Source of the DNA: Actinomycetota bacterium
GTDB taxonomy: Bacteria > Actinomycetota > Thermoleophilia > Solirubrobacterales > Thermoleophilaceae
Assembly: GCA_019246335.1 (NCBI GenBank)
Contig: JAFAQQ010000058.1
Location: 1 to 53,378 of the forward strand
DNA: 53,378 nt
Direction of reading: 5' to 3'
The stretch's first letter is position 1, and each line of letters begins with the position of its first letter. This document shows, piece after piece, positions 776 through 46,678 of the stretch. Below the pieces are notes generated by a model. The model searched no databases. It was given only the letters and a program-made list of their open reading frames with translations, and was not told where the DNA came from. The position numbers and the translations under genes were made by a program.

Positions 776-787
776 GGACCCGGACCG

Positions 788-4880: not shown

Positions 4881-4893
4881 AGGCACGCGGCCG

Positions 4894-28009: not shown

Positions 28010-28635
28010 GCGTCGAGGGCGACGGCCGTCCGGCGGGCCTCCTGGTCGACTTCGGCGGGGTCCTGACCACGAATGTCTTCGAGTCCTTCCGCGCGTTCTG
28101 CGCGGCAGAGGGGCTCGACCCGGACGCCGTCAGGTCGCTGTTCCGCGAGCGCGGAGAGGGCCTGGACCTCCTGCGCCAGCTGGAGAAGGGCGAGATCGAG
28201 GTGCCGGACTTCGAGCGGCGGTTCGCCCCCCTGCTCGGCGTTCAGCGGGCGGATGGGATGGTCGATCGGCTGTTCGCGGGCGTCCAGCCCGACGAGAGGA
28301 TGATCGCGGCGGTGCGCGCCGTGCGCGACATCGGGACACCCACCGGGCTCATCTCGAACTCCTGGGGCGGGGTGACCTACGACACCGCCCTGATCGAGGA
28401 GCTCTTCGACGGCGTCGTGATCTCAGGCGAGGTCGGGCTCCACAAGCCCGATCCGGAAATCTTTCGCCTCGGAGCCGAGCGGATCGGCGTGCCGGCCGAC
28501 CGCTGCGTGTTCGTCGACGACCTGCGCGAGAACTGCGAGGGCGCAGAGTCGGTGGGGATGACCGCGATCCTCCACCGCGGAGCCGACGGGACGCTTCCCG
28601 AGCTTGGGCGGCTGTTCGGCGTCCAGTTGCGGTAG
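28006..28635 (+). CDS. HAD-superfamily hydrolase
   Basis: GTGA overlap with the upstream gene. Motif I LLVDFGGVLT, ISNSWG and VFVDD. Confidence 0.85.
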   Translation: MSVEGDGRPAGLLVDFGGVLTTNVFESFRAFCAAEGLDPDAVRSLFRERGEGLDLLRQLEKGEIEVPDFERRFAPLLGVQRADGMVDRLFAGVQPDERMIAAVRAVRDIGTPTGLISNSWGGVTYDTALIEELFDGVVISGEVGLHKPDPEIFRLGAERIGVPADRCVFVDDLRENCEGAESVGMTAILHRGADGTLPELGRLFGVQLR

Positions 28636-28642
28636 GACCCGG

Positions 28643-29242
28643 TTGCGCCGACGGGTCGTGGCTGTCGCGCTCGGCCTTTCGGTCGCCGCGACCGCCGGGT
28701 GCGGCCAGGGCCGCCCGCCCCTTCCGAGACCGCTCCTCTTCGGTGAGGGCGCGCTCTACCGGCCCGCACCGTACGGACCGCGCGTCGCTAGCGCTCGCAC
28801 GATCGGGCGCCTTCGATGCGAGGCGGCGGCCCCTCCGGCGCGGTTCCTCGCCCACGTCGAGGTGATCGTCGACGGCCGCGTGGCGATCGTCCCGGCGGGT
28901 ATCGGGGTGGCGCCGCCCCAGGTCCGCCGCGGGGCCTACGTGGTCCGCGGCCGATGCGAATACCCGATTCGCACGCATGAGCCGACCGGCCTCCTCGAGG
29001 TCGCAAGCTCGCGCCGGATCACGCTCGGCGAGCTGTTCGCGGTCTGGCAACAGCCGCTCACGAGGCAGAGGCTGCTCGAATTCGCGCCGCGGCGCGGGTC
29101 GATGGTGCGCGCGTACGTCGGCCGCGCGCGGTGGCCCGGCGATCCCCGGGAGATCGTCCTTCGCCGTCACCGCGCCGTGACCCTCGAGCTGGGCCGGTTC
29201 GTGCCCCCGCGCCCGCGGTACGCCTTCCCGCGCGGGATTTAG
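28643..29242 (+). CDS. Putative lipoprotein, unknown function
   Basis: TTG at 28643 gives (M)RRRVVAVALGLSVAATAGC, a lipobox-like signal. The track start at 28604 would overlap the HAD gene. Confidence 0.5.
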   Translation: MRRRVVAVALGLSVAATAGCGQGRPPLPRPLLFGEGALYRPAPYGPRVASARTIGRLRCEAAAPPARFLAHVEVIVDGRVAIVPAGIGVAPPQVRRGAYVVRGRCEYPIRTHEPTGLLEVASSRRITLGELFAVWQQPLTRQRLLEFAPRRGSMVRAYVGRARWPGDPREIVLRRHRAVTLELGRFVPPRPRYAFPRGI

Positions 29243-29276
29243 GAGTTCCACGGCGGCCGGCGTTACGCTGGCGTCG

Positions 29277-29924
29277 ATGCGCGCGCGACGCCGCACATCG
29301 ATCGCAGCCGCGACCCTCACCGCCGTGCTCGCCGCAGTGCCGCTCGCGCGCGCCGACTCCGACCCCGCGAGCGACGTCCTCCCCGTCCAGAACGTCTTCG
29401 TCCCCTACCAGCCGCAGGTCTCCCAGTCGCTCCAGCAGACGCTCCGAGCGGAGACCGCCGCGGCGGCGAAGTCCGGGTTCCCGATAAAGGTCGCGATCGT
29501 CGCCACGGCCCAGGACCTCGGTGGGGTGCCGGACTTCTTCGGAAAGCCGCAGCCCTACGCGCGCTACCTCGGCTCCGAGATCAGCTTCAGCAAGCCGCAG
29601 CCGCTGCTCGTGGTGATGCCATCGGGACTCGGGACCTATCAGGTGCCGCCGAAGGCGGCCGCGGTGGCCCGGGGCATGACGCCCGGGGCGGGCCCGGACG
29701 GGATGGCCACCACCGCGGTGAAGACGATCGAGCAGATGGCGACCGCAGCGGGCCACAAGATCGGCAGCTACAAGGCCGGCGGGAGCGGGGGTGGAAAGTC
29801 GTCGACCGCGCTGATCTTCGCCGGGCCGATCGTGCTGCTCGTGATCGCCCTCGTCGTCTTCAGCTACCGCAGGATGGGGCAGGAGGAGGAGGAGCTCGAG
29901 GAGCTCCGCTCGGGGTCCGGCTGA
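29277..29924 (+). CDS. Exported protein with C-terminal TM anchor and acidic tail, unknown function
   Basis: Signal peptide ..AVPLARA|DSD, a C-terminal TM segment (ALIFAGPIVLLVIALVVF), then QEEEELEEL. Confidence 0.6.
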   Translation: MRARRRTSIAAATLTAVLAAVPLARADSDPASDVLPVQNVFVPYQPQVSQSLQQTLRAETAAAAKSGFPIKVAIVATAQDLGGVPDFFGKPQPYARYLGSEISFSKPQPLLVVMPSGLGTYQVPPKAAAVARGMTPGAGPDGMATTAVKTIEQMATAAGHKIGSYKAGGSGGGKSSTALIFAGPIVLLVIALVVFSYRRMGQEEEELEELRSGSG

Positions 29925-29955: not shown

Positions 29956-30114
29956 TCACTTCTTCGCCTTCCGCCGCTCCTTCCGCTTGTTGCGCCACTC
30001 TCCGATGTAGATGTAGCCGAACAGCGCCACCACCGGGCCCATGAAGACTGGCAGCGACACGTACCAGTGTCCGAAGTGCGCGATCGGCGGGACCATCAAC
30101 CCGAGTAGCGCCAT
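29956..30114 (-). CDS. Small membrane peptide (52 aa), not in supplied ORF track
   Basis: ATG at 30114 to TGA at 29956. Product is MALLGLMVPPIAHFGHWYVSLPVFMGPVVALFGYIYIGEWRNKRKERRKAKK. GC3 is mostly G/C. It lies 76 nt downstream of the 470-aa gene on the same strand. No clear RBS. Confidence 0.4.
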   Translation of the reverse strand: MALLGLMVPPIAHFGHWYVSLPVFMGPVVALFGYIYIGEWRNKRKERRKAKK

Positions 30115-30190
30115 TACCGGATAATCGCAGGGGTCGCGAGGGCGGTCATGAGTACGTGCTCGGAATCTCCTCCGCCCGCGACGCCACGCC

Positions 30191-31603
30191 TCAGGTGTTG
30201 ACCGCGGACAGCAACCAGAGTCCGAGGCTGGTGAAGCCCACCATCACGCACAACATCCAGTACTGCGAGCGAGCCGCGTCGCGCACTCGCGAGTAGACCG
30301 CGAGGGCGCGATCGTGCGCGAGGGTCAGCCCGGCGACGTGCCCACACACGAGTGCCGCCACCTGCACGTACCAGATTCCCGCCGCGGATATCACCTTGAA
30401 GTTCACCGTCGCGCTCGCGGTCCCGAAGATGTTTGCGCCGTTTCCGAGCGGGTCGGAGATGAGGTATCCGATCGCCTGGCCCTGATAGGCGAGCAACGAG
30501 AAGTAGTGCGCTACTGCGTATGCGAAGGCGATCGGGATGAGGGTGTGGGCAAAGCGATGCGCCAGCTCCGCCTGGCGGTGGTGGTGATCGACGGTCACCA
30601 TTCCGCGTACCCCGGTGGCGTACACCCCGCCGACGAGCAGAACGCAGAACAGAAGCCCGACCGTCGACGCCAGCTCGACCGAGACCGTCGTGCTGAATCC
30701 AAGGTCGCGGAAGAGCTTCGCGAGGTCGCCGCCGAGCGAGCGCCAGACGGGCCCGTTCGAGAGACCGTCGAACGTCGTAGTCCCGATGGCGGCGCACAAG
30801 AGGACGACGGTGCCGGGAATGATCTGGAGAGGCGGAGCTCCCGAAAGCGGACGGCGCAGGTACACCGCGCCGTCGGCGTGCCGCTCGAGCGGCGAGATCC
30901 GTGAGTACAGGTTGAACAGGCACGAGAACGCGTCGCCGCGGCGGGTCCAGGTCTCGATGCCGAACGCGGACATGCCCGCGAGCTGGACGGCTGCGTAGCC
31001 GATCGAGAGCCAGGCGAGCGTCGAGGGGACGTCCTTATCTGCGTATGCCAGCTCCAGCCACGCGAAGCCGATCACGCCTGCGACGGCCGGCCATTGGCCG
31101 AGCCACGCTGGATACTCGCGGCTTCGAATCGGACGGCCCCCAAGCTTGCGCCATGTCGACGAGACGGCGAGCGCGAACGAGCGCCAGGGGTTGAAGGCGC
31201 GAAAGACGTCCCCGAAGACCGCGCTCAGGATCACGGTGCCCACCCAGAAATGGACGTAGATGAACGTCGGCTCGAGGTTCTGGAGCGGCTGCGAGGTTCC
31301 GGCGAATCCGCAGTAGACGAGAAACACGAAGCATCCGATCCCAAGCAGCCCGCATGCAGCGACGACTGCACGCGGCATCGCGAACAAGCGCCTCTTGGGG
31401 GAGTGCTGGAGCCGCGGTTCGCGCCAGAGCGACCCGAGAGCCACGAACGAGATGATCAGAACGATCGCCGCCGACCAGCCGAACAGCCACGACGGGATCG
31501 GTAGGTCCGTTCGCCCGACGAGTCCGTGCGCGGACGCCGCCGCCGGCCCGGCCAGTACGGCCAGCCCGGCGGCGAACAGTCCGAGTGCGAACCTGCGCAC
31601 CAT
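30191..31603 (-). CDS. Polytopic membrane protein (470 aa) with cleavable-looking signal peptide, unknown family
   Basis: The ATG lies 8 nt after the ycnI-like stop. N-terminus ..LAGPAAASA|HGLVGRTD. About 10 or more TM segments and a His cluster VDHHHRQAELAHRFAH. Confidence 0.8.
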   Translation of the reverse strand: MVRRFALGLFAAGLAVLAGPAAASAHGLVGRTDLPIPSWLFGWSAAIVLIISFVALGSLWREPRLQHSPKRRLFAMPRAVVAACGLLGIGCFVFLVYCGFAGTSQPLQNLEPTFIYVHFWVGTVILSAVFGDVFRAFNPWRSFALAVSSTWRKLGGRPIRSREYPAWLGQWPAVAGVIGFAWLELAYADKDVPSTLAWLSIGYAAVQLAGMSAFGIETWTRRGDAFSCLFNLYSRISPLERHADGAVYLRRPLSGAPPLQIIPGTVVLLCAAIGTTTFDGLSNGPVWRSLGGDLAKLFRDLGFSTTVSVELASTVGLLFCVLLVGGVYATGVRGMVTVDHHHRQAELAHRFAHTLIPIAFAYAVAHYFSLLAYQGQAIGYLISDPLGNGANIFGTASATVNFKVISAAGIWYVQVAALVCGHVAGLTLAHDRALAVYSRVRDAARSQYWMLCVMVGFTSLGLWLLSAVNT

Positions 31604-31611
31604 CGCTGCTG

Positions 31612-32322
31612 TCAGCCTGCGGCTCCCCGCGACCGCGGCCGCATGAGTGCGGCGAGGCCGATGAGGAGGCCGACAATCGCGACCACGAGCGCAGCGATTC
31701 CAAGCCCCTTGCTTGCGCCCTTGGTGCTCGACTTGGCGGACGTCGGGTTGGCCGCGAGCAGCTTGTTTACCTTCGCTGCCGCGTCCCCGGGGCCCGCCTC
31801 GTCGCCCGCGACGTCGATGATCGCCCCGCCCTTGGGCGCGACCGCGATCGTCGGGGCCGGCTCATTCGCACTTGGCGGGCCAATCCAGCGAACCACCTTG
31901 CCGTTGCTGTAGGTCTGGAGCGTCTTGAACGTGAGCGTTCCGGTGGCGTCATCCGGCATCGCGGTGGCGATCGCGAAGTTCTGGAAGCCCCCCGGCGGGA
32001 TCTTCCCGCCGCTCCAGATGATCTCCGAGACCTCCTCGGTGACCTTGCCCTGGTCCGTCTGGACCGGCTTCGCGAGCTTGCGAGTCAGGACCTTCGCGTT
32101 CCAGCCGGGGATCGGCTGAGTCGCCACGTCCAGGAAGCCTGGAGGAACGGCCACGTCGACCTTTGTCGTGTCGGCGTTGGTCTCCTCGTTCGGCACCCGA
32201 ATGTTGAACGTCACGTTTGCGCCCGCCGGCACGTCGTTCGGATGGAAGCTGACGTGCGCCTGGGCACCCGCTGGCACCGCCATCGTCGTCAGCGCCGCGG
32301 CAAGTACGGCTCTCTTCTTCAT
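31612..32322 (-). CDS. YcnI-family (DUF1775) copper-binding protein with C-terminal TM anchor
   Basis: ATG at 32322 is preceded by AAGGAG. Signal ..VPAGAQA|HVSFHPNDVPAG.. is typical of YcnI. The longer 357-aa ORF in the track is an R/P-rich extension. Confidence 0.85.
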   Translation of the reverse strand: MKKRAVLAAALTTMAVPAGAQAHVSFHPNDVPAGANVTFNIRVPNEETNADTTKVDVAVPPGFLDVATQPIPGWNAKVLTRKLAKPVQTDQGKVTEEVSEIIWSGGKIPPGGFQNFAIATAMPDDATGTLTFKTLQTYSNGKVVRWIGPPSANEPAPTIAVAPKGGAIIDVAGDEAGPGDAAAKVNKLLAANPTSAKSSTKGASKGLGIAALVVAIVGLLIGLAALMRPRSRGAAG

Positions 32323-32342
32323 GTTCTGTCTCCTTTGAAGAG

Positions 32343-32699
32343 TCATCGAATTGCCGGCCCGCCTATGCACACGGAGCCGGCGCGTGCAACGGCGCGCGAC
32401 GGTGGGGCGCGCCCGGCGAGAGCGGTGGCGAGGAGCAGGCCCCCCCGCGGGACCAGGGCCATCGGCGGGCGGCGACGCGTCTTGGCAAGCGTGAGCCCTC
32501 GCCGGATCCTGCGACGCCGCAGCGCGGCCCTCACAAGCAGGTCTTCGCCGGGGAATCGCCCTACGAGCAGGAGCAGCGCGAGAAGGGCGACCGGGACTCC
32601 GTACAGCAGGCCCACCCCAGCCTGCGCGACCAGGAGGCCGCACGCCAGGGGGACCACGGCTGCCATGAACGCGGCGAGGCGCCACCGTGCGGCCGTCAT
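32343..32699 (-). CDS. Small membrane protein (118 aa), paralogous to the C-terminal half of the 207-aa protein; not resolved in ORF track
   Basis: The ATG at 32699 overlaps the CopCD stop (ATGA). Two TM segments, an Arg-rich stretch, then ALAGRAPPSR. GC3 is high. It fills an otherwise 373-nt gap in a tightly packed operon. Confidence 0.6.
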   Translation of the reverse strand: MTAARWRLAAFMAAVVPLACGLLVAQAGVGLLYGVPVALLALLLLVGRFPGEDLLVRAALRRRRIRRGLTLAKTRRRPPMALVPRGGLLLATALAGRAPPSRAVARAGSVCIGGPAIR

Positions 32700-34501
32700 C
32701 GGATCGGCACCTTCACCGTCGTCGTGTACTCGTCGAACTTCGTCACGAGCACGGTCACCGTCAGCTGCCACGTGCCAGGCACGCTGAGCAGGGCTCCGGG
32801 CACGATGTAATGCCCGGGCCCTGCCTTGCTCGCGCCCTGGTTGAGGGGACCGATCCGCTTCGAAGGAAGGCTCTCCGCGATGTCGACCTCCTGCGCACGG
32901 GTGAACTGCGTGCCGTCCTTCGGGTTGAGCAGGTAGAGGTGGATTTCGTTCGATCCGACCTTCGCCGGGTCCACCGTCATCTGGAGCTGCGCCGGTCCTA
33001 CGTTGGTCGTCTTGTTCACCGGACCTGTCTGGGCGACGATCGACGGCGCGTACATGACGAGCGCAGCGGTGACGCCAAGGATGCCGAAGACCAGCATCAC
33101 CTCGCCGCGAAGCGCCCGACGGAGCAGCAGGCCACCGCGGCCGGGTGCGGCGCCCTCCGCCGCCAACCGCTTCATGAGTGGGACGCTGCGCTGCCGGTTG
33201 TAGGCAGCGAGAGGGATCAGCCCGAGTAGGACGATCGACTTGATCAGGACCGCACGCCCGAACGCCGTGTGGATGAGGTTGCCCGGATCGCGGACGTAGA
33301 TGTAGGCCTGGATCACTCCGGTCACCGCGATCGCGCCGACAGCGGCGAGGGCGAGGGGCGAGAAGCGGCCGAGCACTGCCCCGAGCAGTCGGGTCCGATC
33401 CGCCGGCTCGAGCGCGCGCGTGGCTCGAGGTACAGCGAACAGCAGGAGCGCAAGGCCGCCCGCCCACACGCTCATCGCGACGACGTGGATGACGTCGACC
33501 GGGAAGAGCACCGCCTCCGGGCTCTGCGTGGACGCGTGGCCGGCGAGCGCGGGCATCAGCACGAGGTAGACGAGCGGCGCCACCACCAAGAGGCCAACCG
33601 GACCGGGGCCTCGCCTCATCGCCAGCCCCGTCGCTCCGAGCTCGGCCGGCCGCAGGACGGGCGCGCGCTCACGGCGCGGCGAAAGCAGCGGAATCGCGAA
33701 CGCGGCCGCGACCGCCCATGCGGCCACGCCGAGGCCGAACGACCGGCCGAACCTCGTCCCTAGGACCTCGCGGACGATATTTGGCTTCAGGGCCGCCCAG
33801 CCCGAGATGCCCCCGGCGAACGCGCCCTCCAGTACCACGAGCGCCGCGGCGGTCACAGCGCCCGCGATCGCGACGACGATGACGACGGTCCGCAGCCGTC
33901 GCAGGAAGGCCTCGGATGCACCGGCCCATTCCGGGCTTCCGCCGCCCGTCGCCCGAAGCGCGGGCAGCCAGGTCCAGAGCATGAACATCAGAGCGCCAAC
34001 CGCGACCGCGATCGATGCGTATTGCAAGCCGCGGGCGATCCCGAACGCGATCTCCGTTGGCGGCCCGGTCTTCGAGCCCTTGGTTAGCTGGGCGACGGTC
34101 TGACCCGGTGCCGTACCGGGCTTCCCGATCGAGAACACAAACCCGCTGGACACCACGTGCCCATCCGCGGAGATCACGCGGTAGGTCGCCGTGTACGTTC
34201 CCTCCGCCAGATGCGGCTTGAGGTGAACGCCGAGCTCCGACCCAGTGCTGTTCGGGTGGAAGGCGTCGCCCTGGTCGACCCGCTTGCCGGAGGAGTCGAA
34301 CACGCGCACGGCGCCGAAGTTCCCCTCGACCGTCTGGTCGAACTTGAACACGACGGCCGAGGGCTCCCGCTTGACGACGGCGCCTCGAGTCGGCGACGTC
34401 GATTGGAGCTGCGCATGGGCCCACGCCGCCGGCGCGCCGACGAGCAACGCCGCCGCTGCCGCGACGGCAGCGGCGGCGGCGCGTTGGCGTAGCGCCGTCA
34501 C
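32696..34501 (-). CDS. CopC-CopD fusion protein with C-terminal YtkA/FixH-like domain (YcnJ-like)
   Basis: The GTG at 34501 overlaps the upstream stop. Signal ..APAAWA|HAQLQSTSP (CopC N-terminus), 8 or more TM segments of CopD type, and a C-terminal beta domain (..GPGHYIVPGALLSVPGTWQLTVTV..). Confidence 0.88.
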   Translation of the reverse strand: MTALRQRAAAAAVAAAAALLVGAPAAWAHAQLQSTSPTRGAVVKREPSAVVFKFDQTVEGNFGAVRVFDSSGKRVDQGDAFHPNSTGSELGVHLKPHLAEGTYTATYRVISADGHVVSSGFVFSIGKPGTAPGQTVAQLTKGSKTGPPTEIAFGIARGLQYASIAVAVGALMFMLWTWLPALRATGGGSPEWAGASEAFLRRLRTVVIVVAIAGAVTAAALVVLEGAFAGGISGWAALKPNIVREVLGTRFGRSFGLGVAAWAVAAAFAIPLLSPRRERAPVLRPAELGATGLAMRRGPGPVGLLVVAPLVYLVLMPALAGHASTQSPEAVLFPVDVIHVVAMSVWAGGLALLLFAVPRATRALEPADRTRLLGAVLGRFSPLALAAVGAIAVTGVIQAYIYVRDPGNLIHTAFGRAVLIKSIVLLGLIPLAAYNRQRSVPLMKRLAAEGAAPGRGGLLLRRALRGEVMLVFGILGVTAALVMYAPSIVAQTGPVNKTTNVGPAQLQMTVDPAKVGSNEIHLYLLNPKDGTQFTRAQEVDIAESLPSKRIGPLNQGASKAGPGHYIVPGALLSVPGTWQLTVTVLVTKFDEYTTTVKVPIR

Positions 34502-35175
34502 CAGGCCTCCGCGGCCCCCCTCGGTGTCGCCTCACGTTCATCAGCCGTGCGGCGGCGCCGGATGAACCAGACGAGGGCGATCCCCAGCAGCGCGATCACT
34601 ATCAACGCGACGATCGCGGCGGCCGGGAACCCCTTCGGCTGCCCCGCCCAGAACAGCGTTCCGTTGATGGCAGCCGGCTTTCCGCCGACGCTCACCGGGA
34701 TCGTGTAGTCGAAGATCTTGGTCTTCTTGTGCTTGTCCTTCACCTGTGACGGGATGGTGTGGGCCATCCAGTGCATGCGATGGTCATGCCACACAAAACG
34801 TCCGGACTGGTCGATGACCTGCCACTGGGGCGCCCCCTTACCCGTCACGCTCTTCGGCACCGGCGTCGTGGCGAAGCGATCCTGGTTCAGGTAGACCGCG
34901 GGACTGTTCTTGTTCTGCTCGACCGTCCCGTTCGGGAGGAGTTCGGCATACGGGTAGCCGTTGTAGTCCCGGATGACGACCGGCTTCCCGGTCTTGTTGA
35001 CGAGCTCGAGCTGGTTGTCATAGCCCAGTACCTGTACCTGCAGGCCCTGGATGTTCGGGAAGACGCCGTTGACCACCGACCGGTAGTCGGGATTCCCTTC
35101 GTGTGCTGCAGCTGGTTGGGCAGACGCCGCGACCAGCACGGCCGCGATTGCGACTGCCCGTCGAAGACGCGACAT
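34498..35175 (-). CDS. Exported His/Met-motif protein (225 aa) with C-terminal TM anchor, unknown family
   Basis: ATG at 35175 is preceded by GAAGGAG. Signal ..ASAQPAAA|HEGNPDY. Internal WHDHRMHWMAH motif and a C-terminal TM segment (AAAIVALIVIALLGIALVWFI). Confidence 0.8.
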   Translation of the reverse strand: MSRLRRAVAIAAVLVAASAQPAAAHEGNPDYRSVVNGVFPNIQGLQVQVLGYDNQLELVNKTGKPVVIRDYNGYPYAELLPNGTVEQNKNSPAVYLNQDRFATTPVPKSVTGKGAPQWQVIDQSGRFVWHDHRMHWMAHTIPSQVKDKHKKTKIFDYTIPVSVGGKPAAINGTLFWAGQPKGFPAAAIVALIVIALLGIALVWFIRRRRTADEREATPRGAAEAW

Positions 35176-35231
35176 CGCTGCTCCTTCGGGTCGGGGCTTC
35201 ACGCAGCGCCCGGTCCCTAGGGGCCGGCGCG

Positions 35232-35855
35232 CTACGTCGCTATCAGCTTGCGCACGGGGGGTGCCCGCCCTGCCGCAGATGCAGCGAGCGGGTCGAGCAA
35301 GCGGATGGGCGCGGTGGGCTGCCGCTTCCCTGCCGGCTGGTCGCGGCGGGTCGGAGCGGAGCGGACACGGGCTCGCGATGCGAACCGGACGACCGCGTGG
35401 GCACCACGCATGAGCAGCGTCATGGCAAACGCCACGGTCATCGCAACGGGCACGCTCCAGAGCCCGCCGTGCCCGAAAACGCCCGCCAGGCTCGGTGGGT
35501 GGCCGGCGGCGAAGGCCCCCTCGAGGAGCTCCTGGCAGATGTAGATGAGGACGAGCCCCAGCGCCGTCACGAGCCAGAGTGCCGCCACCGGACGCGCGGC
35601 ACCCGAACTCTCCTGCGTTCGCCATGCACGCGCAACGCGCGTCAGAAACAGACCGAATGCAACAGCGGTCAGCGCGACGATCCACGGAGTCACCCAATTG
35701 AGATAGGCATGGCCCTGCCTGGATAGCTGGCCGTCGGCATGTGACCCGTAGGCCAGGTAATAACGCGCCTGATGGACGACCAGAGCCGCGGCGGGCATCA
35801 GCGCTGCGGCACCGAGCCGGCGTAACGCGGTACGTGTCGCGGATCCGCGACTCAT
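35232..35855 (-). CDS. Membrane protein (207 aa), unknown family
   Basis: About 4 TM segments, His-containing loops (HQARYYLAYGSHADG.., GHPPSLAGVFGHGG) and a C-terminal Arg-rich tail ending AAGRAPPVRKLIAT. Confidence 0.7.
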   Translation of the reverse strand: MSRGSATRTALRRLGAAALMPAAALVVHQARYYLAYGSHADGQLSRQGHAYLNWVTPWIVALTAVAFGLFLTRVARAWRTQESSGAARPVAALWLVTALGLVLIYICQELLEGAFAAGHPPSLAGVFGHGGLWSVPVAMTVAFAMTLLMRGAHAVVRFASRARVRSAPTRRDQPAGKRQPTAPIRLLDPLAASAAGRAPPVRKLIAT

Positions 35856-35882
35856 CGCGTCCTCAACTGTACTCCCGGCCGA

Positions 35883-37814
35883 TTACGACGCCGCGCCGAC
35901 CGACCCGCCGCCCGGCGCCGGCGCCACGCGCGGCGACGCCTGCGGGCGCCGGCGCCGCGGGGGCGGCAGCGACCCGATCTCCCGCGAGATGCTCCGCAGC
36001 CCCCAGGTCAGCAGGGCGATCACCGCGAGCCCGATCGCGAGCACGATCAGGTACGCGAACGTCGTGAGGAACGGCGACACGCCCGGCTTCTGCTCCCGCT
36101 GCAGAAGCTTCTTGTCCCGTTCGAACGGCCGGGTGAACTGCGCCGGCGCCGGGATGCCCTTGACGGGGATCGCCGAGTCGGCGGGCATGTAGAGCGGCAG
36201 GCCGAGCACCTCACGGCCGCGCGCCAGACGCAGGGTCGACTTCCACTTCGGACCGGAGACGGGGATCGCCTGCGTCGTCCTGTACTTCCCGGGCCCGATC
36301 TCCTTGAGACGATCGACGACCGCGCCGTGGCCCTGCCATGCGGTCACCGTGAGCCAGTACTTGTGCTTTGCCGCGTTCGCCGGATGCAGCTGGATCGTGG
36401 CCGACACCTTGCGCGTCGACCCCGAGCTCGGGATGTTGCGCAGCGCGACCGTCGCCGACGGCGGGTTCGACGGCACCGGCATCGGTACGCACCAGACGAC
36501 CAGGCCCACCACCGCGGCCGCCGCCAGCGGAATCGCCCAGCGCCCGTAGCGCTCGGTGCCGGTCTCGGGGGTGATCGAACGGCCGATGAAGCCGCCGAGG
36601 ACGCCTCCTGCCAGGCCCGCGACGATCGCGCACGGAATGGCCTCCGGCAGCAGCGAGGCGGGCCACGGGTTGTAGCCCCAGACATGCGACCAGCCGAACT
36701 CGCCCGCGAAGCCCAGGGTCCCGATCAGAAGGCCCGACACCGCCCCGAGCGCGATCGGCCGCCGCCGGCCGAAGCGCAGCCCCACGAGCTCGACGCACAG
36801 GCCCTCCACGATGTAGAGCGGGAAGTGCGGCGTGGTCTGGCCGAGGATCGGCCCGACCATCAGGGCCAGGAAGCCGCGAAGCCCGATGAAGAAAACGACG
36901 CCGGCCAGCGCGCCCCCGCGCCCGAGCCGCACGCGGGCGGTGACGAGCGCGATGCCCGCGGCGAGCGCCAGCAGCACCGGCTGCCAGACGAGCCGGAACT
37001 GCGGCACTCCGAAGTCGAACTCGCCCTGGAAGGTGGACATGCCCACGAGCAGGGAGCCCGCGAGGCTGAGGTCACGAAAGCGCTGTAGCGGCGTCTTGGC
37101 GACGGGCGAATGGCCGGTTTCCTTGGCGCCCTCGACCTGCAGCACCCAGAGCCCGATGATCGACAGGCTCGCGCCGCCGAAGAGCAGCAGGTGCGTCGGG
37201 CCCCAGAGCGTCACGTCCTGGCCGAAGAGCCGGTGCCAGATGTCGTCGAGCGGGAAGGCCAGCAGCGAGACCGCGGAACAGACGAGGATCAGGATCCCGC
37301 CGAGCGGGGCCCACCATTGCGTCGCGAAGTTCTTCGCGACGTTGCTCGGCCGCTCCCGCGGCAGCGCGAGGGTCAGGGCGCCGCAGACGAAGACGCCGAA
37401 GAGCCCGACGAGGATGAAGTAGTGGGCCGGGTTGGCGAGCGGCCCGGGGTCGCGGCCGTTGTCGAGGTGGAGGGAGATGTCCCAGTACATCCCGAAGACC
37501 GCTACAAGCAGCGAGGCCCCGAGGACCGTCGCCGGGATCGAAGCCCAGCTCGGAAGGCCGGTGAGACGCTCCGCGACGCCGGCGAGCCGGCCGAGCCACT
37601 GGATACGGCCGCTGCGATGGGCGTTGATGACCCAGAGGAGCACCAGCGTCGCGATGGTCGCGCCGGCGGTGGCGCCGATGACCTGGCCGATCCCCGCCCC
37701 GGCCGCGGGCGGCTGGCCGGCCGCGAGCGCGCCGGCGGGAGTGGCGAGGCTCGCCGCTGCGGCGGCCACCGCCCCTACAAGAGCTCGGCTTGCCAGGCGC
37801 CCTGCTCGCTTCAT
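35883..37814 (-). CDS. Large polytopic membrane protein (643 aa) with C-terminal extracytoplasmic beta domain and terminal TM, unknown family
   Basis: ATG at 37814 is preceded by AGGGGG about 10 nt upstream. The ATG at 37853 is the alternative track start. Contains YWDISLHLDNGRDPGP and DDIWHRLFGQDVTLWGPTH loops. Confidence 0.8.
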   Translation of the reverse strand: MKRAGRLASRALVGAVAAAAASLATPAGALAAGQPPAAGAGIGQVIGATAGATIATLVLLWVINAHRSGRIQWLGRLAGVAERLTGLPSWASIPATVLGASLLVAVFGMYWDISLHLDNGRDPGPLANPAHYFILVGLFGVFVCGALTLALPRERPSNVAKNFATQWWAPLGGILILVCSAVSLLAFPLDDIWHRLFGQDVTLWGPTHLLLFGGASLSIIGLWVLQVEGAKETGHSPVAKTPLQRFRDLSLAGSLLVGMSTFQGEFDFGVPQFRLVWQPVLLALAAGIALVTARVRLGRGGALAGVVFFIGLRGFLALMVGPILGQTTPHFPLYIVEGLCVELVGLRFGRRRPIALGAVSGLLIGTLGFAGEFGWSHVWGYNPWPASLLPEAIPCAIVAGLAGGVLGGFIGRSITPETGTERYGRWAIPLAAAAVVGLVVWCVPMPVPSNPPSATVALRNIPSSGSTRKVSATIQLHPANAAKHKYWLTVTAWQGHGAVVDRLKEIGPGKYRTTQAIPVSGPKWKSTLRLARGREVLGLPLYMPADSAIPVKGIPAPAQFTRPFERDKKLLQREQKPGVSPFLTTFAYLIVLAIGLAVIALLTWGLRSISREIGSLPPPRRRRPQASPRVAPAPGGGSVGAAS

Positions 37815-37937
37815 CTGCACTCGCCCCCTGTTGTTCGCCTTGCTACGTGACATGCGCGCCGTTGCGGGTCGGGGCCCTTGGATCGTCGCGGGTCGCGCGC
37901 CGCCGACACCGCCGCAGCCCGCACGCCGACCGGCCCA

Positions 37938-37968
37938 GGATAACTGACTAACCGTTCAGTCAGTATCC
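37938..37968. promoter_or_regulatory. Near-perfect inverted repeat, candidate operator upstream of the membrane-protein operon
   Basis: GGATAACTGACT-aaccgttc-AGTCAGTATCC (11 of 12 bp arms, 8-nt spacer). It sits in the least GC-rich part of the 231-nt intergenic region, 124 nt upstream of ATG 37814. Confidence 0.45.
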
Positions 37969-43784: not shown

Positions 43785-45185
43785 TCACCGGTCCTTGCGT
43801 ACGTGCGGGTAGTGCGTCGCGCGACCACGGAACAGCAACGGCGGCGAGACCAGGCACGGCGGCGCGGGCTCGAAGCCGGGGTTGTCGACGTTCGAGCAGT
43901 CGAACGCGCGCAGCCCGGTGTTCCCGGCGCTCATCCGGCTCAGCTCGAGCGGCAGGAAGTACGGGTTGTGGCGGTTGGAGCCCAGCCGCTTGCTGTAGGC
44001 GACCGCCCCCTCCGAGGTGAACGGCGCAACCACGCGGAGGTAGTGGAGCGGCGTCGCGGCGCCGGAGGCCGTCGAGGCCTGCGAGGCGGCTGCGACCCCC
44101 GCGAGCTGCGAGACGAGCTCCTCCTTGTAGAGCGCGAGGTAGTCCACCACCGGCTGCGCCTCGCGGAGCACGGGGACCAGGAGCCGCAGGAGCGGGTGAG
44201 CTGCGCGTACGATCCGGGTGAGCGCGGGCACGCCGCGCCTCGACGCCGCGATCACGCGGTCGACGTCCCCGAACAGGCCCTCGAGCTGCGGCGAGAGCAC
44301 CGCCACGTCCTGCAGGGCGGGCCCCAGCGCGCGCGCCCCAGGCCGCAGGTCGTGCACCACCGGCCCGGCCTCCCCGGAGAGCAGGCGCACCTGCTCGAGC
44401 GTCGGACGCAGCTCGGCCAGCGTCACCGGCAGGATGCGGACCGTGTCCGCCAGATCGCGGTCGCGCGCGGCGGTGGTCGACAGCACGCGGTCACCGGCCT
44501 GGATCAGCCCGGCGATCTCCCCCTGGCGGCGACCGAGCGCGCCGAACACCACGCCGCTGTCGGAGATCAGCTTGCGCACGGCGCGCTGCTGCGAGTCCAG
44601 CGTGCGCAGGAGGGTCGTGCCGCTGTCGGTCAGCGCCGGGAGGTTCCCGAGCGCGTAGTTCAGGTCCTGGCCGCGCCCGGCGAGCCCGACGGACAGCCCG
44701 TGGACGAAATGCTGGAGGTCCTGGCGGGTGCGCGTGTCGAGGGCGCGCGTTACCTCGTCCAGCTCGGTCGTGCTGGCGATCTGCGTGTTCGGGATGCGGC
44801 CGCCGTCCGGGAGCGAGCCCGATCGCGGGTCGCCGGGCGTGAGCTCGACGTAGGTCTCCCCGAGGAGCGTCTTGAGCCTGAGGATCGCGCGCGTGTCGCG
44901 CGGGATCGGCGCGTAGCGCGGGTCGATCTGCATGGTCGCCTGCGTTCGCCCGCCACCCTCGGACAGCTTGACCACCCGTCCGACGCTGACCCCCGATATG
45001 CGCACGTCGGCCGTGTCCGAGAGCGAGGTCGCCTCCTCGAACCCCGCAACCACCTGGTACCCCTTCGGAGCGAGCGGGATCGGGCCGCCGAAGGAACGCC
45101 AGACGTACAGCAGGATCCCGAAGCACGTGAGCGTGAACGCGACCATCACGGCGATCTGCACGGCGGAGGGCGGGCGCTTCTGCAT
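43785..45185 (-). CDS. MCE-family (MlaD-domain) protein, 6th in array
   Basis: N-terminal TM segment (AVQIAVMVAFTLTCFGILLYVW), then an MlaD domain (..YQVVAGFEEATSLSDTADVRISGVSVGRVV..) and a long helical region. Confidence 0.9.
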   Translation of the reverse strand: MQKRPPSAVQIAVMVAFTLTCFGILLYVWRSFGGPIPLAPKGYQVVAGFEEATSLSDTADVRISGVSVGRVVKLSEGGGRTQATMQIDPRYAPIPRDTRAILRLKTLLGETYVELTPGDPRSGSLPDGGRIPNTQIASTTELDEVTRALDTRTRQDLQHFVHGLSVGLAGRGQDLNYALGNLPALTDSGTTLLRTLDSQQRAVRKLISDSGVVFGALGRRQGEIAGLIQAGDRVLSTTAARDRDLADTVRILPVTLAELRPTLEQVRLLSGEAGPVVHDLRPGARALGPALQDVAVLSPQLEGLFGDVDRVIAASRRGVPALTRIVRAAHPLLRLLVPVLREAQPVVDYLALYKEELVSQLAGVAAASQASTASGAATPLHYLRVVAPFTSEGAVAYSKRLGSNRHNPYFLPLELSRMSAGNTGLRAFDCSNVDNPGFEPAPPCLVSPPLLFRGRATHYPHVRKDR

Positions 45186-46676
45186 CTACCGGCCCCCGAC
45201 CTTCGTGGGTGAGGACGGCTTCGCCGGCCGCGCGGGCTCCGATCCGGCGGGCGGCGGCGGCTGCGTCGAGGATCCGCTCCGCGCCTTCGGACGCGCTGCG
45301 GCGCCCTGCGTCTGCCGGTACCACTTCTCGATGGCGCTCCTGATCTGGTCGGGGGAGCCCGGCTTGAACTTCGGCGGCGCCGGGTGGATCGGGCAGAGCG
45401 GGAGCTGGAGGAACGGGAAGAGCGCCGGGTTGGCGAGGATGACCGCCGGGAGGCTCGTGCACCCGACCAGCACCAGGCCGCGGAACGCGGCGCCGTGCGC
45501 GTCCTCGATCGAGAGCACCGAGTTCGAGTTGTGCATGAACCAGGGGAGCCAGAACAGGTAGCCCTCCTCCTTGCCGGGCGGGTTGTACGCGAGCTCGTTC
45601 GCGACGCGGTTGAGCGCATGGCCCGCGTCGACCAGCCCGGGCGTCGTCGAGTCGACGCGCGCGAGCTCCGGCCCGAACTTCGCGAGCAGGGGGATCGCGG
45701 CGCGGACGAAGGGGCGCACCCCGTTCGCGACAACCGGCGTGGCCTCGCTCAGCAGCGGCCTGGCCTGGACGAGTGCCGGCGCGAGCTCCTGCGCGACCGG
45801 CAGCAGCGCGGTGAGCGCCGGCCTGGCGTCGACCGCGAGCCCGCGCGTTGCCACGAGCGCGTTGCGCGTGGCGTGGAGCGCGCCCGGCAGCCGCGCCACC
45901 GCGGACTGCAGGTCGGCGTCGCGCGCGGCGAGCGTGCCGAAGACCGCCGACGAAGAGTCGACCAGCCGGCCCAGGTCCGCATCCCGGCCCGCCGCCGCGG
46001 ACGCCAGCCGGTGGAGATTCGTGACGAGCCGGGCGAGCTTCGTGCGCCGGTCGGCGATCGCCCGAGCTATGCGGGACGTCTGGGCGAAGGTCGGCTGCGT
46101 GGCGCGCAGGACGCGACGCAGGTCCGCGCCCCGTCCGCGGAGCCCCTGACCGCTTGCGTCCACGAACGCGGCGAGGTAGGCGCGCGTGTCGGCGTCGAGC
46201 GACGCCAGGACCTCGTCCGGGTTGACGTTCGGGCGCGTGTTCTCGATCGGGAGGGTGCTCCCGTCGTGCAGGCGGCCGCGGTCGGGGAGCGACGGGTCCG
46301 GGCGGCCCGGGTCCATCTCGATCGCCATGTCGTTGAGGCCGGTCTTCGGCCGCAGCTGCAGGTGCGCGCTTCGGTACATCCCGCCGGGGACGCGCGACTG
46401 GATGTCGAGCTCCACGACGGCGCGGCCCTCCTTCAGCGTCACCCCGCCGATCTCGCCCACCTTCACGCCGGCGACGTTCACGGTCTGTCCCTGGCCCGGC
46501 GTGACCGACTGCGCGTTCTCGAATTCCGCGTAGATCCGCGTCTCGTGCTGCCAGGGGAAGCGCAGGCGCTCGTGGACGCTCACGTACACGGTCACGGCCA
46601 GGGCGAGTCCGACCATCCCGGCCAAAGCGAGCAGGTGCTGCAGGTACTGCGTGGCGATCTTGCGCAGGCTCGGCAT
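45186..46676 (-). CDS. MCE-family protein, 5th in array
   Basis: ATG at 46676 (aa 121 of the track ORF). TM segment plus ..IYAEFENAQSVTPGQGQTVNVAGVKVGEIGGV... Pro-rich C-terminal tail. Confidence 0.9.
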   Translation of the reverse strand: MPSLRKIATQYLQHLLALAGMVGLALAVTVYVSVHERLRFPWQHETRIYAEFENAQSVTPGQGQTVNVAGVKVGEIGGVTLKEGRAVVELDIQSRVPGGMYRSAHLQLRPKTGLNDMAIEMDPGRPDPSLPDRGRLHDGSTLPIENTRPNVNPDEVLASLDADTRAYLAAFVDASGQGLRGRGADLRRVLRATQPTFAQTSRIARAIADRRTKLARLVTNLHRLASAAAGRDADLGRLVDSSSAVFGTLAARDADLQSAVARLPGALHATRNALVATRGLAVDARPALTALLPVAQELAPALVQARPLLSEATPVVANGVRPFVRAAIPLLAKFGPELARVDSTTPGLVDAGHALNRVANELAYNPPGKEEGYLFWLPWFMHNSNSVLSIEDAHGAAFRGLVLVGCTSLPAVILANPALFPFLQLPLCPIHPAPPKFKPGSPDQIRSAIEKWYRQTQGAAARPKARSGSSTQPPPPAGSEPARPAKPSSPTKVGGR

Positions 46677-46678
46677 GG

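Follow-up and report, generated by a model that had tools for sequence, protein, structure and literature searches.

CopC and CopD were originally named as resistance proteins, and the plasmid-borne CopABCD system of P. syringae is the paradigm of copper resistance. In methanotrophs, the operons for copper monooxygenases carry accessory copC, copD, pmoD and PCuAC genes alongside. Cu(II) binding and exchange have been established experimentally for the YcnI and YcnJ proteins of B. subtilis (PMC12362106), as has their support of the aa3 and caa3 oxidases in copper limitation (PMC13344008). The C. glutamicum copper-deprivation genes, which encode CtiP (a CopD-Caa3_CtaG fusion), CopC (cg1884) and the PCuAC-type Cg1883, link actinobacterial CopC/CopD-type import to Caa3_CtaG-type oxidase assembly (PMC9145763). 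Here we compare with these systems a locus in a 53,378-nucleotide stretch of actinobacterial DNA (the window), in which YcnI and CopC-CopD homologues lie among six envelope proteins that are possible novel components of an extended copper acquisition and delivery system.

Gene layout and the two recognisable products

Eight open reading frames, designated here G1 to G8 in descending order of position, lie on the minus strand between 29956 and 37814. A first-pass annotation had described closely spaced same-strand genes whose products are all secreted or membrane-bound and of which only YcnI/DUF1775 and CopC-CopD are recognisable, and each part of that description is borne out. All eight frames are read directly in the window at the positions given below; G3 and G4 overlap by GTGA and G4 and G5 by ATGA, G6 and G7 are 8 nt apart, and the remaining gaps are 27, 56, 20 and 76 nt. 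The eight genes may be co-transcribed. GC3 is mostly 0.8–0.97 in the coding parts of this DNA of about 70% GC. Each of the eight products carries hydrophobic transmembrane stretches, an N-terminus resembling a signal peptide, or both, and profile searches with G1, G2, G3, G5, G7 and G8 returned no Pfam or NCBIfam family, leaving G4 and G6 with the only curated-family matches.

G4 (601 aa, 32696–34501) is a CopC-CopD fusion. It had been read, like YcnJ, as CopC-CopD-YtkA, and Pfam confirms CopC (9.5e-20) and CopD (1.8e-18), but the Ig-like C-terminal domain matches YtkA only below the cut-off (E=0.065; 14.3 bits against 25.9). Its CopC domain aligns with that of B. subtilis YcnJ (PDB 9C14, 4.9e-10) from His29, and a SADGH motif falls within the alignment. 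G6 (236 aa, 31612–32322) matches DUF1775 at 5.1e-43, has a predicted cleavage site at AQA|HVSFHP and a C-terminal transmembrane anchor (residues 209–227), and aligns with PDB 3ESM (7.2e-12) and, from His23, with B. subtilis YcnI (7ME6, 3e-10). We regard G4 and G6, on these alignments, as homologues of YcnJ and YcnI, N-terminal histidine included.

The likeness to ycnKJI extends to the order of CopC and CopD, the N-terminal histidine and the DGH motif in G4, to DUF1775, the N-terminal histidine and the C-terminal anchor in G6, and to the expected capture and import of Cu(II) for heme-copper oxidases (PMC12362106, PMC13344008). The differences are that a YcnK-type repressor is absent from this window, that YtkA gives no more than a weak match, and that the genes here run copCD-G5-ycnI, in the company of six other envelope genes that have no ycnKJI counterpart. 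We also scanned 38 window products; several small genes (4.9–5.9 kb and 14.5–16.7 kb) and the mce genes past 49.5 kb lay outside this set. The scanned products include no P-type ATPase, CopZ, CsoR/CopY or multicopper oxidase, in agreement with the earlier observation that classical efflux or resistance genes are missing, and likewise no CtaG, Sco, oxidase gene or copper regulator.

G7 and its partners in other genomes

G7 (470 aa, 30191–31603) is a polytopic protein with a signal peptide followed by the conserved sequence A|H-G-x-V-G-x-x-D-L-P-I-P. Across haloarchaea and three bacterial phyla, residues H26, H366, H422, H430, D279, D384 and M454 do not vary. The family, present in bacteria and haloarchaea alike, comprises 5,693 clusters at 50% identity. 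G7 has no Pfam, NCBIfam or PDB sequence match, and its confidently predicted model (pLDDT 84, pTM 0.83) finds no PDB fold, with TM-scores of at most 0.16 among the best 50 matches. Homologues from Mycobacteriales and Pseudonocardia have no signal peptide and carry only 5–10 residues before A-H-G, and the N-terminal-histidine idea is not universal for G7. Longer relatives are fused to BNR/Sortilin and TPR domains, which are uninformative partners.

The commoner of two single-pass partners of G7 is G3 (225 aa, 34498–35175), which has a signal peptide, an ectodomain of about 160 aa, a C-terminal transmembrane anchor, RRRR, and an invariant C-terminal E-A-W. His25 is the predicted first residue of the mature form, and the motif W-H-D-H-R-x-H-x-M is conserved both in alignment A3 and in a broader alignment of 85 sequences. 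Profile comparison of G3 with YcnI, CopC and the cupredoxin-like protein described below showed no relation.

In a sample of 80 species-level Thermoleophilia genomes or loci, G7 is accompanied by G3 in 58 and by a cupredoxin-like protein in 15, and never by both; the Pfam Cupredoxin_1 matches of the cupredoxin-like proteins (7e-5 to 3e-4) fall short of the cut-off. CopCD is present at 28 of the 58 G7-G3 loci, 25 of which also have YcnI, and neither occurs at any of the 15 cupredoxin-type loci. The conserved core is a member of the unnamed G7 family with a single-pass partner, to which YcnI/CopCD is an optional add-on, a further departure from ycnKJI. Neighbourhood conservation, on which the proposed association of the unassigned genes depended, holds for G3 and G7 at these loci, and also for G5 (at least 22 loci) and G8; for G2 it holds in a subset of loci only. 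A single metagenome-assembled contig (sampled as both L007 and L014) carries G2-G3-CopCD-G5-YcnI-G7-G8 in the same order as the window.

Caa3_CtaG and/or Sco are encoded at 51 of 73 Thermoleophilia G7 loci (Pfam matches of 2.4e-47 and 1.2e-22 respectively), with CtaG usually divergent from and immediately adjoining G7. The link of the unassigned proteins to CtaG and Sco is at least as strong as that to YcnI/CopCD. The Thermoleophilia loci, with CtaG and Sco beside CopCD/YcnI, show a linkage comparable to that of C. glutamicum; their CtaG is however a separate gene, absent from this window, neither G7 nor G1 is homologous to CopD or CtaG, and G3, G2/G5 and G8 have no described counterpart.

Similar associations are seen outside Thermoleophilia. 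On plasmids of M. dioxanotrophicus and M. chubuense a cupredoxin-like gene is translationally coupled with G7, and in both the pair adjoins sigC and hmoCAB-type copper membrane monooxygenase genes. SigC of M. tuberculosis is a copper-starvation sigma factor (PMC7924339), and in a review of the NBB4 cluster the two genes that follow sigC are given no names and appear as 'other genes' (PMC8784404). The placement beside hmoCAB-type genes is consistent with a role in supplying such a membrane enzyme with copper and recalls the accessory genes of methanotroph monooxygenases, although G7 and the cupredoxin-like protein fall outside the copC, copD, pmoD and PCuAC families. G7 adjoins PCu(A)C in Sulfitobacter, a DyP peroxidase in Haladaptatus and a multicopper oxidase with a P-type ATPase in M. 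gallinarum, and some homologues, for example in Neorhizobium, have no copper neighbours.

G2 (207 aa, 35232–35855) has three to four transmembrane segments, outer loops with histidines and a basic C-terminal tail ending A-x-R-[AG]-P-P; it is the first gene of the interior cassette, and its homologues lie immediately 5' of the cupredoxin-like gene and G7, or of G3-CopCD. G5 (118 aa, 32343–32699) has a G(R/Y)(F/Y)PGE motif, a basic linker and a C-terminal RGGLLLA..LAxRxPP. Its own coding statistics are weak (GC3 0.82), and we accept it as a gene because the family is conserved in at least 22 other loci, mostly bearing CopCD/YcnI; it is 44% identical to the L007 copy. The suggestion that G2 and G5 are paralogues stands only for their common C-terminal motif, a weak relation to which both the BLASTP match (E 0.027) and the profile comparison (E 0.0019, probability 14%) are confined.

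Mosaic structure of the locus

The nearest relative of the locus, L003, is mostly about 82–89% identical to the window in its flanks, G1 and G8 (86% for G8), and only 42% and 62% identical in G2 and G7. The slot between G1 and G8 is filled there by a three-gene cassette of G2, a cupredoxin-like protein and G7, and YcnI, CopCD, G3 and G5 are all absent. The same slot thus holds two different cassettes, and the locus is a mosaic of an outer pair, G1 and G8, and an interior cassette, G2 to G7; the operon probably arose by placement of this cassette between the outer two.

G1 (643 aa, 35883–37814; alternative starts are the ATG at 37853, further upstream, and that of a 628-aa call) has about 12 transmembrane helices, an extracytoplasmic beta-sandwich (residues ~453–563) and a C-terminal transmembrane anchor. 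Its invariant motifs, WDISxHxDxGRD and DDxWH...D...H, are placed on the extra-membrane side by a charge-bias estimate. At least 6,380 clusters make up its family, and G1 has no Pfam, NCBIfam or PDB sequence match; the AlphaFold model, a confident one (pLDDT 82.7, pTM 0.84), has no PDB structural match, with TM-scores of at most 0.17 among the best 50, and there is no homology between G1 and G7. G1 is usually not near copper genes: at 46 of 49 loci none of G2 to G7 is present, and the commonest neighbour is a MerR-family regulator of the Rv1828 type. Apart from the window, it was seen beside the G2 to G7 module only in two close relatives, L003 and L004, and it follows G7 on two metagenome contigs. 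An M. vanbaalenii plasmid carries a G1 homologue (43% identity) directly downstream of a membrane-anchored CopC. This heme-copper oxidase island also contains ctaD, TlpA, genes for oxidase subunit III and for cytochrome c oxidase assembly, and a regulator of the CopY family, and a cupredoxin-like/G7 pair lies 8 kb away from the G1 homologue.

G8 (52 aa, 29956–30114) is a single-pass peptide with an N-terminal A-H-x-G-H-W-Y-V-S and a Lys/Arg-rich C-terminus, and its family members follow G7, G3 or G1, depending on the genome. G1 and G8 are adjacent in many other genomes; a G8-type peptide follows G1 at 26 of 71 G1 loci, in 24 of these overlapping the G1 stop codon. The earlier proposal of an eight-gene operon built around YcnI and CopCD does not survive these comparisons, since G1 mostly occurs without the interior genes and L003 has neither YcnI nor CopCD. 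The broader proposal of an enlarged envelope copper machine fares better, its copper link being strengthened by the neighbourhoods, but not as a single, co-evolving eight-gene unit.

Proposed copper delivery and alternative explanations

We lean, by no great measure, towards a composite system at the outer face of the cytoplasmic membrane which acquires copper and hands it to membrane copper enzymes, the main client most likely being a heme-copper oxidase. The widespread but unnamed membrane proteins are probably undescribed copper-delivery parts, because in other genomes the set adjoins copper enzymes and their assembly factors. By homology, the N-terminal histidine sites of G6 and of the G4 CopC domain would bind Cu(II) exchangeably, and the CopD domain would move copper across the membrane. 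G7 would form a second membrane complex with an ectodomain partner (G3 here, replaced in the alternative cassette by the cupredoxin-like protein), a small membrane protein of the G2/G5 type and the G8 peptide. Copper binding is presumed for G1, G2, G3, G5, G7 and G8, with the seven invariant residues of G7, WHDHRxHxM of G3 and AHxGH of G8 as candidate ligands. This complex could pass copper on to, or take it from, its client enzymes and the CtaG and Sco assembly factors, and G1, normally paired with a G8-type peptide, might be a second device of analogous layout. Against this reading, no structural, motif or remote-homology tie connects any of the six unassigned products to a known transporter, chaperone or reductase.

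Transport in the direction of supply is itself inferred, and the locus could instead sequester or remove excess envelope copper in the manner of cop systems. The naming history of CopC and CopD is in keeping with this, as are an M. gallinarum plasmid on which the neighbours of G7 homologues are a multicopper oxidase, an ArsR regulator, a CDF transporter and a P-type ATPase for heavy metals, and a P1B-type ATPase with an HMA domain downstream of G7-G3 at L034; contexts with a multicopper oxidase or P-type ATPase fit resistance as well as supply. We nevertheless consider resistance rather unlikely. CopC and CopD functions are common to P. syringae CopABCD and this locus, but CopA multicopper oxidase, CopB and CopRS, like P-type ATPase, CopZ and CsoR/CopY, are absent among the window products scanned, and the neighbours of the relatives, dominated by CtaG and Sco, point to enzyme maturation rather than detoxification. 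Moreover, B. subtilis YcnJ and YcnI work in copper limitation (PMC13344008, PMC12362106), and the sigC gene beside the mycobacterial homologues encodes a copper-starvation regulator (PMC7924339).

It is unlikely that G7 and its G3 or cupredoxin-like partner are themselves a copper-dependent membrane enzyme metallated by YcnI/CopCD, a cupric reductase or other membrane-surface oxidoreductase being the candidate activity. The invariant His, Asp and Met residues would suit such an enzyme, as would a cupredoxin-like partner, whose fold typically serves electron transfer, and Gram-positive models of oxidase assembly are acknowledged to lack a dedicated cupric reductase (PMC13344008). However, no component has a recognisable cofactor or redox motif or a Pfam match, electron-donor genes are not consistently linked, the commoner partner, G3, has no cupredoxin similarity, and the fusions of longer relatives are uninformative. 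That G1 and G8, and perhaps G2/G5, are unrelated to copper and adjacent only through lineage-specific insertion seems quite unlikely, even though the exchanged interior, the rarity of G1 beside the module and the lack of G1/G7 homology speak for it: one G8-type family trails G1, G7 or G3 across genomes, two different cassettes occupy the same G1-G8 slot, and the M. vanbaalenii island brings G1, CopC and G7 together.

Two convergent plus-strand genes may also belong with the operon, a tentative assignment. They encode a 212-aa lipoprotein-like protein (28604–29242) and a 215-aa protein (29277–29924) with a signal peptide, a C-terminal transmembrane anchor and the motif DGDPASDVLL.Q.V..PYQP, neither with a Pfam match. 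The 212-aa family is seen at three other loci and the 215-aa family at nine other G7 loci (eight by clustering, and L002), in four of which (L002, L016, L019 and L046) its gene immediately precedes G2 in the same orientation. Upstream of G1 no sigma-70-like promoter was scored. A 22-bp inverted repeat, ACTGACTGAACGGTTAGTCAGT (37943..37964, minus strand), is present there as a single copy in the window (chance expectation 0 matches). It sits inside a block that is conserved upstream of G1 in L003 and L004, where the rest of the region has diverged; the repeat itself is the same there save for one base in the left arm, and is a candidate operator.

The eight-gene run and its recognisable copper pair

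Eight minus-strand genes, referred to here as G1 to G8, run from 37814 down to 29956, and since the window is about 70% GC we used third-position GC to tell genes from spurious ORFs. G1 (35883-37814, 643 aa) is followed by G2 (35232-35855, 207 aa), G3 (34498-35175, 225 aa), G4 (32696-34501, 601 aa), G5 (32343-32699, 118 aa), G6 (31612-32322, 236 aa), G7 (30191-31603, 470 aa) and G8 (29956-30114, 52 aa). The first-pass annotation had described these as same-strand envelope ORFs with a GTGA overlap, an ATGA overlap and an 8-nt gap; the ORFs are real and the three junctions exact, the other intergenic gaps are 27, 56, 20 and 76 nt, and all eight products have a signal-peptide-like N-terminus and/or a transmembrane stretch. 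It had also recognised only two of the eight, and we agree: Pfam gives CopC and CopD in G4 and DUF1775 in G6, and our searches returned no Pfam or NCBIfam family for G1, G2, G3, G5, G7 or G8. A promoter and terminator scan of the DNA gave nothing above shuffle background, and the gene spacing, together with the lack of any convincing terminator, makes co-transcription of G1-G8 a plausible prediction.

Upstream of G1 lies a 22-bp inverted repeat with 7-bp arms (ACTGACTGAACGGTTAGTCAGT, 37943-37964) that is unique in the window. It falls within a block conserved in two related loci (L003 and L004) in which the remaining intergenic region is diverged, and the window has about 95 additional bases between the repeat and the G1 start. 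The repeat may be an operator; there is no regulator gene near it. The ycnKJI paradigm includes a linked YcnK repressor, whereas here we see only this palindrome, with no regulator gene in or beside the operon and none among the window products scanned.

G4 matches Pfam CopC (9.5e-20) and CopD (1.8e-18, above cut-off). Its CopC domain aligns with that of Bacillus subtilis YcnJ (PDB 9C14, 4.9e-10) from His29, SADGH motif included, and His29 is the residue after the signal-peptide cleavage site predicted from the sequence (AWA|HAQ). G4 has both the first mature His and the D-x-H motif expected for the Cu(II) site of a YcnJ-type CopC domain, together with a polytopic CopD domain. It scores 88.8 bits against the NCBIfam CopD equivalog model, under the 195-bit cut-off, and we therefore class it by sequence score as a CopD family member and not as an equivalog. 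Beyond the last transmembrane segment is an extracytoplasmic tail of about 115 residues. The proposal of a CopC-CopD-YtkA fusion like YcnJ holds for CopC and CopD, with the YtkA assignment weak (E 0.065, 14.3 bits against a cut-off of 25.9, sub-threshold). A match of designed 'Cake' repeats to a stretch of this tail was rejected as a repeat-inflated chance match.

G6 matches DUF1775 (5.1e-43) and aligns with B. subtilis YcnI (7ME6, 3e-10) from His23, the predicted cleavage being AQA|HVS. It also aligns with Nocardia 3ESM, where the conserved Trp in VVRW can be seen, and this Trp is probably equivalent to B. subtilis Trp137; a transmembrane stretch at 209-227 forms the C-terminal membrane anchor. 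The first mature His, conserved Trp and C-terminal anchor of the YcnI/DUF1775 type are thus all present. In B. subtilis, the YcnJ CopC and YcnI domains show tight Cu(II) binding and exchange in vitro (PMC12362106), and YcnJ supports the aa3 and caa3 oxidases under copper limitation, for which residues in both CopC and CopD are needed (PMC13344008). The copper link claimed for the pair stands, by homology to these domains.

The aldehyde dehydrogenase gene upstream of the operon, on the same strand, is an ordinary flanking gene, and the rest of the window contains housekeeping genes along with nuo and mce operons; scans of the window for Rfam families and tRNAs were negative. Part of the nuo operon (170-11034, plus strand) encodes homologues of NuoG, NuoH, NuoL, NuoM and NuoN, so that respiratory-chain genes share the 53-kb window with the copper locus; no cytochrome oxidase turned up among the window products scanned. 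The mce-type operon (43785-52258, minus strand) is a six-gene run with MlaD domains in all four genes scanned and Mce4_CUP1 matches in two of these; its long apparent ORF overlaps are probably over-extended start calls in high-GC DNA.

Properties of the unnamed membrane proteins

G7 has a signal peptide, an almost invariant A|H-G-x-V-G-x-x-D-L-P-I-P-x-W and then about 11-12 helices. Comparison of eight homologues from Thermoleophilia, Mycobacteriales, Pseudonocardiales, Alpha- and Betaproteobacteria and haloarchaea showed A25-H26, H366, H422, H430, D279, D384, M454, W171 and W219 to be invariant; hydropathy and charge alone do not settle the orientation of the later helices. G1 has about 12 helices followed by an Ig-like beta-sandwich and a terminal anchor, and its strictly conserved motifs WDISxHxDxGRD and DDxWH...D...H lie in loops placed outside by a charge-bias estimate. 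The AlphaFold models of both are confident (pLDDT 84 and pTM 0.83 for G7, 82.7 and 0.84 for G1), and Foldseek comparison with the PDB returned no analogue and no known transporter or enzyme fold for either (best E 9e-3 and TM-score at most 0.16 in the top 50 matches for G7; 6.7e-2 and at most 0.17 in the top 50 for G1). Their profiles gave 0 matches to PDB sequences at E up to 10. Neither protein has a Pfam or NCBIfam match to CopD or Caa3_CtaG, the membrane-domain profile probability being at most 0.4%, and a 12% probability match between G1 and CopCD (the CopC-CopD fusion) involves the signal-peptide region only. Profile comparison revealed no internal repeats in G7 or G1 and no relation among G1, G7, CopD and CtaG, and remote-homology comparisons did not bear out a view of G1 as a G7-like part fused to a G3-like one.

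The G7 family comprises at least 7,969 clusters at 90% identity and 5,693 at 50%; an exact-sequence look-up of G7 itself returned no record. The sole name carried by its relatives in public records is 'fenitrothion hydrolase' (Paraconexibacter, Conexibacter and MAG proteins), which we treat as unreliable because G7 is polytopic and membrane-embedded, the gene contexts are copper-related and NCBIfam has no curated model behind the name; a literature search on it yielded nothing useful. Longer relatives carry BNR/Sortilin or TPR fusion partners, or none, and the JGI name 'polyferredoxin' for one relative was not borne out by Pfam. Motif-based ideas of kinship with GT-C glycosyltransferases, PmoC-like proteins, heme-handling WWD proteins, FTR1/EfeU or CtaM were dropped, no match being found.

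G3 has a conserved W-H-D-H-R-x-H-x-M, an RRRR stop-transfer and an invariant C-terminal E-A-W, and its N-terminal His is conserved in the Thermoleophilaceae branch only. The E-A-W ending (34498-34510 in the window), a cytoplasmic tail motif, is seen in every homologue, even where there is no gene overlap at the stop codon. Pfam gave no cupredoxin match for G3, profile comparison with the family of cupredoxin-like partners whose place it takes gave a probability of 0.7%, and such comparisons likewise failed to relate G3 to YcnI or CopC. The only PDB sequences matched by the G3 profile were designed Symfoil trefoils; these matches came from a short repeated 'Y.R.lpDGTV' motif and were rejected as repeat-inflated chance, and a PF26259 match precomputed for two G3 relatives was not reproduced by our own scan.

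G5 is a real gene despite weak coding statistics, since this type of small membrane protein forms a conserved family in at least 22 loci, mostly with CopCD and YcnI, marked by RRYPGER and a C-terminal RGGLLLA.SLAVRPPP. G2 and G5 have in common only a C-terminal A-x-R-x-P-P motif and tail architecture; in homologues the regions corresponding to 35232-35290 (G2) and 32343-32420 (G5) carry a cytoplasmic A-x-R-[AGP]-P-P near the end. G8-type peptides combine an AHxGH or CLxHWY motif with a single transmembrane segment and a basic tail, and come after G7, G3 or G1 depending on the genome.

Gene neighbourhoods and exchange of the interior cassette

Scanning species-representative genomes with a G7 profile yielded at least 589 loci, of which we analysed the best 80, nearly all from Thermoleophilia (Solirubrobacterales, Thermoleophilaceae). 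Among these best 80, the partner of G7 is G3 in 58 loci and the cupredoxin-like protein in 15, and no locus has both. CopCD is present in 28 of the 80, with YcnI too in 25 of the 28; all 28 belong to the G3 type, and CopCD and YcnI are both missing from every one of the 15 cupredoxin-type loci. When neighbours were clustered over 84 loci, the commonest after G3 was a membrane protein of about 316 aa that proved to be Caa3_CtaG (Pfam 2.4e-47), usually divergent from G7 and immediately upstream, and a 231-aa neighbour is SCO1/SenC (1.2e-22). CtaG occurs in 42, Sco in 23 and one or both in 51 of the 73 G7 loci having upstream sequence. The typical Solirubrobacterales layout is Sco> CtaG< G7> G3> (CopCD> YcnI>) G8>, and DsbA/VKOR-type genes come next in other G7 loci.

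The closest relative of the window that we found, a soil metagenome scaffold from ENA (L003), has flanks that are mostly 82-89% identical in protein sequence (aldehyde dehydrogenase 84%, APH 89%, HAD 82%, RpiB 83%, Fpg 82%), and G1 and G8 are 82% and 86% identical. In the stretch that corresponds to 29956-37814 of the window (L003:2008-6516), it has three genes only between G1 and G8, for G2, a 120-aa secreted cupredoxin-like protein and G7, in the slot that holds the six genes G2-G3-CopCD-G5-YcnI-G7 in the window, and its G2 and G7 are just 42% and 62% identical to the window copies. The similarity of G1, G8 and the flanks around a different and diverged interior means that the whole interior is an exchanged cassette. 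The alternative partners, of 120-141 aa, match Pfam Cupredoxin_1 weakly and consistently (7e-5 to 3e-4, under the gathering score). The six-gene cassette recurs without G1 in another MAG (L007, same contig as L014), in the order G2-G3-CopCD-G5-YcnI-G7-G8 and with 44-63% identity to the window.

G1 has a wider distribution of its own, and occurs without any of G2-G7 in 46 of the 49 metagenome loci having enough downstream sequence; with the interior exchange in L003, this argues against the eight genes being a single machine. The expectation that the unassigned genes accompany ycnI and copCD in relatives was borne out for G3, G5, G7, G8 and partly G2; the linkage of G1 is not general. A G8-type peptide directly follows G1 in 26 of 71 loci, overlapping its stop codon in 24 of the 26. 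A MerR-family gene of Rv1828 type lies within 24 of 37 long G1 loci, an association that may reflect either a functional link or just conserved gene order; the window products scanned include no such gene. In L005 (9128-9853) the regulator is a divergent 241-aa protein, encoded immediately upstream, with MerR_1 and Rv1828-type C-terminal domains.

Two convergent genes downstream of G8 (28604-29924, plus strand) are more diverged between the window and L003 (70% and 61%), and may be further members of the system. One product is lipoprotein-like (212 aa), the other (215 aa) has a signal peptide and a C-terminal anchor, and neither matches Pfam. The 215-aa family is found in nine other G7 loci, four of which have its gene immediately before G2 and on the same strand as G2, and the 212-aa family in three other loci.

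A proposed membrane copper-handling assembly

A translated search of plasmids and chromids recovered G7 homologues in 65 records, including Mycobacteriaceae, Pseudonocardia, Rhodococcus, Variovorax, Ralstonia, Rhizobium, Sulfitobacter and several haloarchaea. A cupredoxin-like gene precedes G7 in Pseudonocardia, Variovorax, Rhodococcus, M. rufum and M. vanbaalenii, with a four-base overlap in all except Variovorax. G7 is divergent from PCu(A)C in Sulfitobacter and is followed by a DyP-type peroxidase gene in Haladaptatus. For G1, one copper link is gained from the M. vanbaalenii JOB5 plasmid (NZ_CP126903.1, L184:10502-13263), where a membrane-anchored CopC immediately precedes a G1 homologue (43% identical) and not a CopD, 8 kb from a cupredoxin-like/G7 pair. 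This island includes ctaD (heme-copper oxidase subunit I), subunit III, a cytochrome c oxidase assembly gene, TlpA and DUF305, as well as a BlaI/CopY-family regulator with an M56 peptidase.

Envelope copper trafficking around CopCD and YcnI is an already known kind of system, in which YcnI and CopC capture Cu(II) and CopD lets it through, a step established by homology. A 2026 B. subtilis study does not settle which route copper takes after import, what exports or inserts it, or whether a cupric reductase takes part (PMC13344008), and the copper route to membrane copper enzymes in Gram-positive bacteria is still unsettled. We suggest, tentatively and at somewhat less than an even chance, that G7, its single-pass partner, a G8-type peptide and a G2/G5-type protein form a new membrane copper-handling complex filling this recognised gap. 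In the most likely mechanism, G7 would form a second membrane assembly with G3 or its cupredoxin-like counterpart, G8 and a protein of G2/G5 type, which would bind copper on the outer face through the conserved His, Asp and Met residues and, together with CtaG and Sco, link copper uptake to the supply of membrane copper enzymes. The new complex could serve copper hand-over or Cu(II) reduction for these enzymes, with heme-copper oxidases and copper monooxygenases as possible clients, or could be a second importer beside CopD; on sequence evidence it may carry, insert, reduce or export copper. The complex would be phylogenetically wide (Actinomycetota, Pseudomonadota, haloarchaea) and have a fold of its own.

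Copper resistance is a rival reading. A P-type ATPase gene, an Ig-like protein gene, G7 and a multicopper oxidase gene lie together in M. gallinarum, and an HMA-domain P-type ATPase continues one locus of the typical Solirubrobacterales layout; at the window itself, the first-pass annotation had cited the lack of a P-type ATPase, CopZ, CsoR/CopY and multicopper oxidase against a resistance island, and that absence holds for the products scanned, which exclude several small genes and the mce genes beyond 49.5 kb. The G7 system may instead be a copper-dependent enzyme and not a carrier. An N-terminal histidine brace in G7 would have to be qualified, since the homologues of Mycobacteriales and Pseudonocardia are without a signal peptide and have only 5-10 residues before the conserved A-H-G.

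The association of G1 and G8 with the cassette could likewise be purely positional, given how often G1 occurs alone. G1 and G8 have the same parts list in one chain plus a peptide (polytopic core, beta-sandwich, anchor, His peptide), and this likeness and their positions flanking the cassette make them a possible, if less well supported, analogue of the G7 assembly. If the copper-handling complex exists as proposed, the G1-G8 pair would represent a fused version of its layout.

What is new here is the set of partner families (G7, G3, G8, G2/G5 and G1), none of which is in Pfam, NCBIfam or the PDB and for which we found no published description, together with their exchangeable modular cassettes and their cross-phylum distribution beside copper enzymes. 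The locus points to at least four unnamed families (G7, G3, G8, G2/G5) plus G1, and in distant lineages these are accompanied by CopCD/YcnI, Sco, CtaG, PCu(A)C, copper monooxygenases and a copper-starvation sigma factor. The G7 family by itself runs into the thousands, with His, Asp and Met residues conserved, and resembles no solved structure. The hypothesis is directly testable because cultured, genetically tractable carriers exist (M. chubuense NBB4, M. vanbaalenii JOB5 and the Conexibacter group).

SigC of M. tuberculosis counters copper starvation (PMC7924339), and a review of the NBB4 monooxygenase cluster notes a SigC-like gene and leaves the two genes after it unnamed (PMC8784404). The order in M. 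dioxanotrophicus PH-06 is sigC, a hypothetical gene, cupredoxin-like, G7, an anti-sigma gene (zf-HC2) and copper membrane monooxygenase subunits C, A and B, and in NBB4 monooxygenase subunits A and B are followed, further on, by sigC, cupredoxin-like and G7. In both (L173:6480-8383 in PH-06, L176:6525-8320 in NBB4) a cupredoxin-like lipoprotein gene and a G7 homologue come after sigC, and the pairs adjoin copper membrane monooxygenase genes and a soluble di-iron monooxygenase cluster. These pairs are candidates for roles in the proposed copper-dependent switch between the two monooxygenases, and give a concrete candidate for the 'copper switch' genes beside hmoCAB/smo in NBB4.
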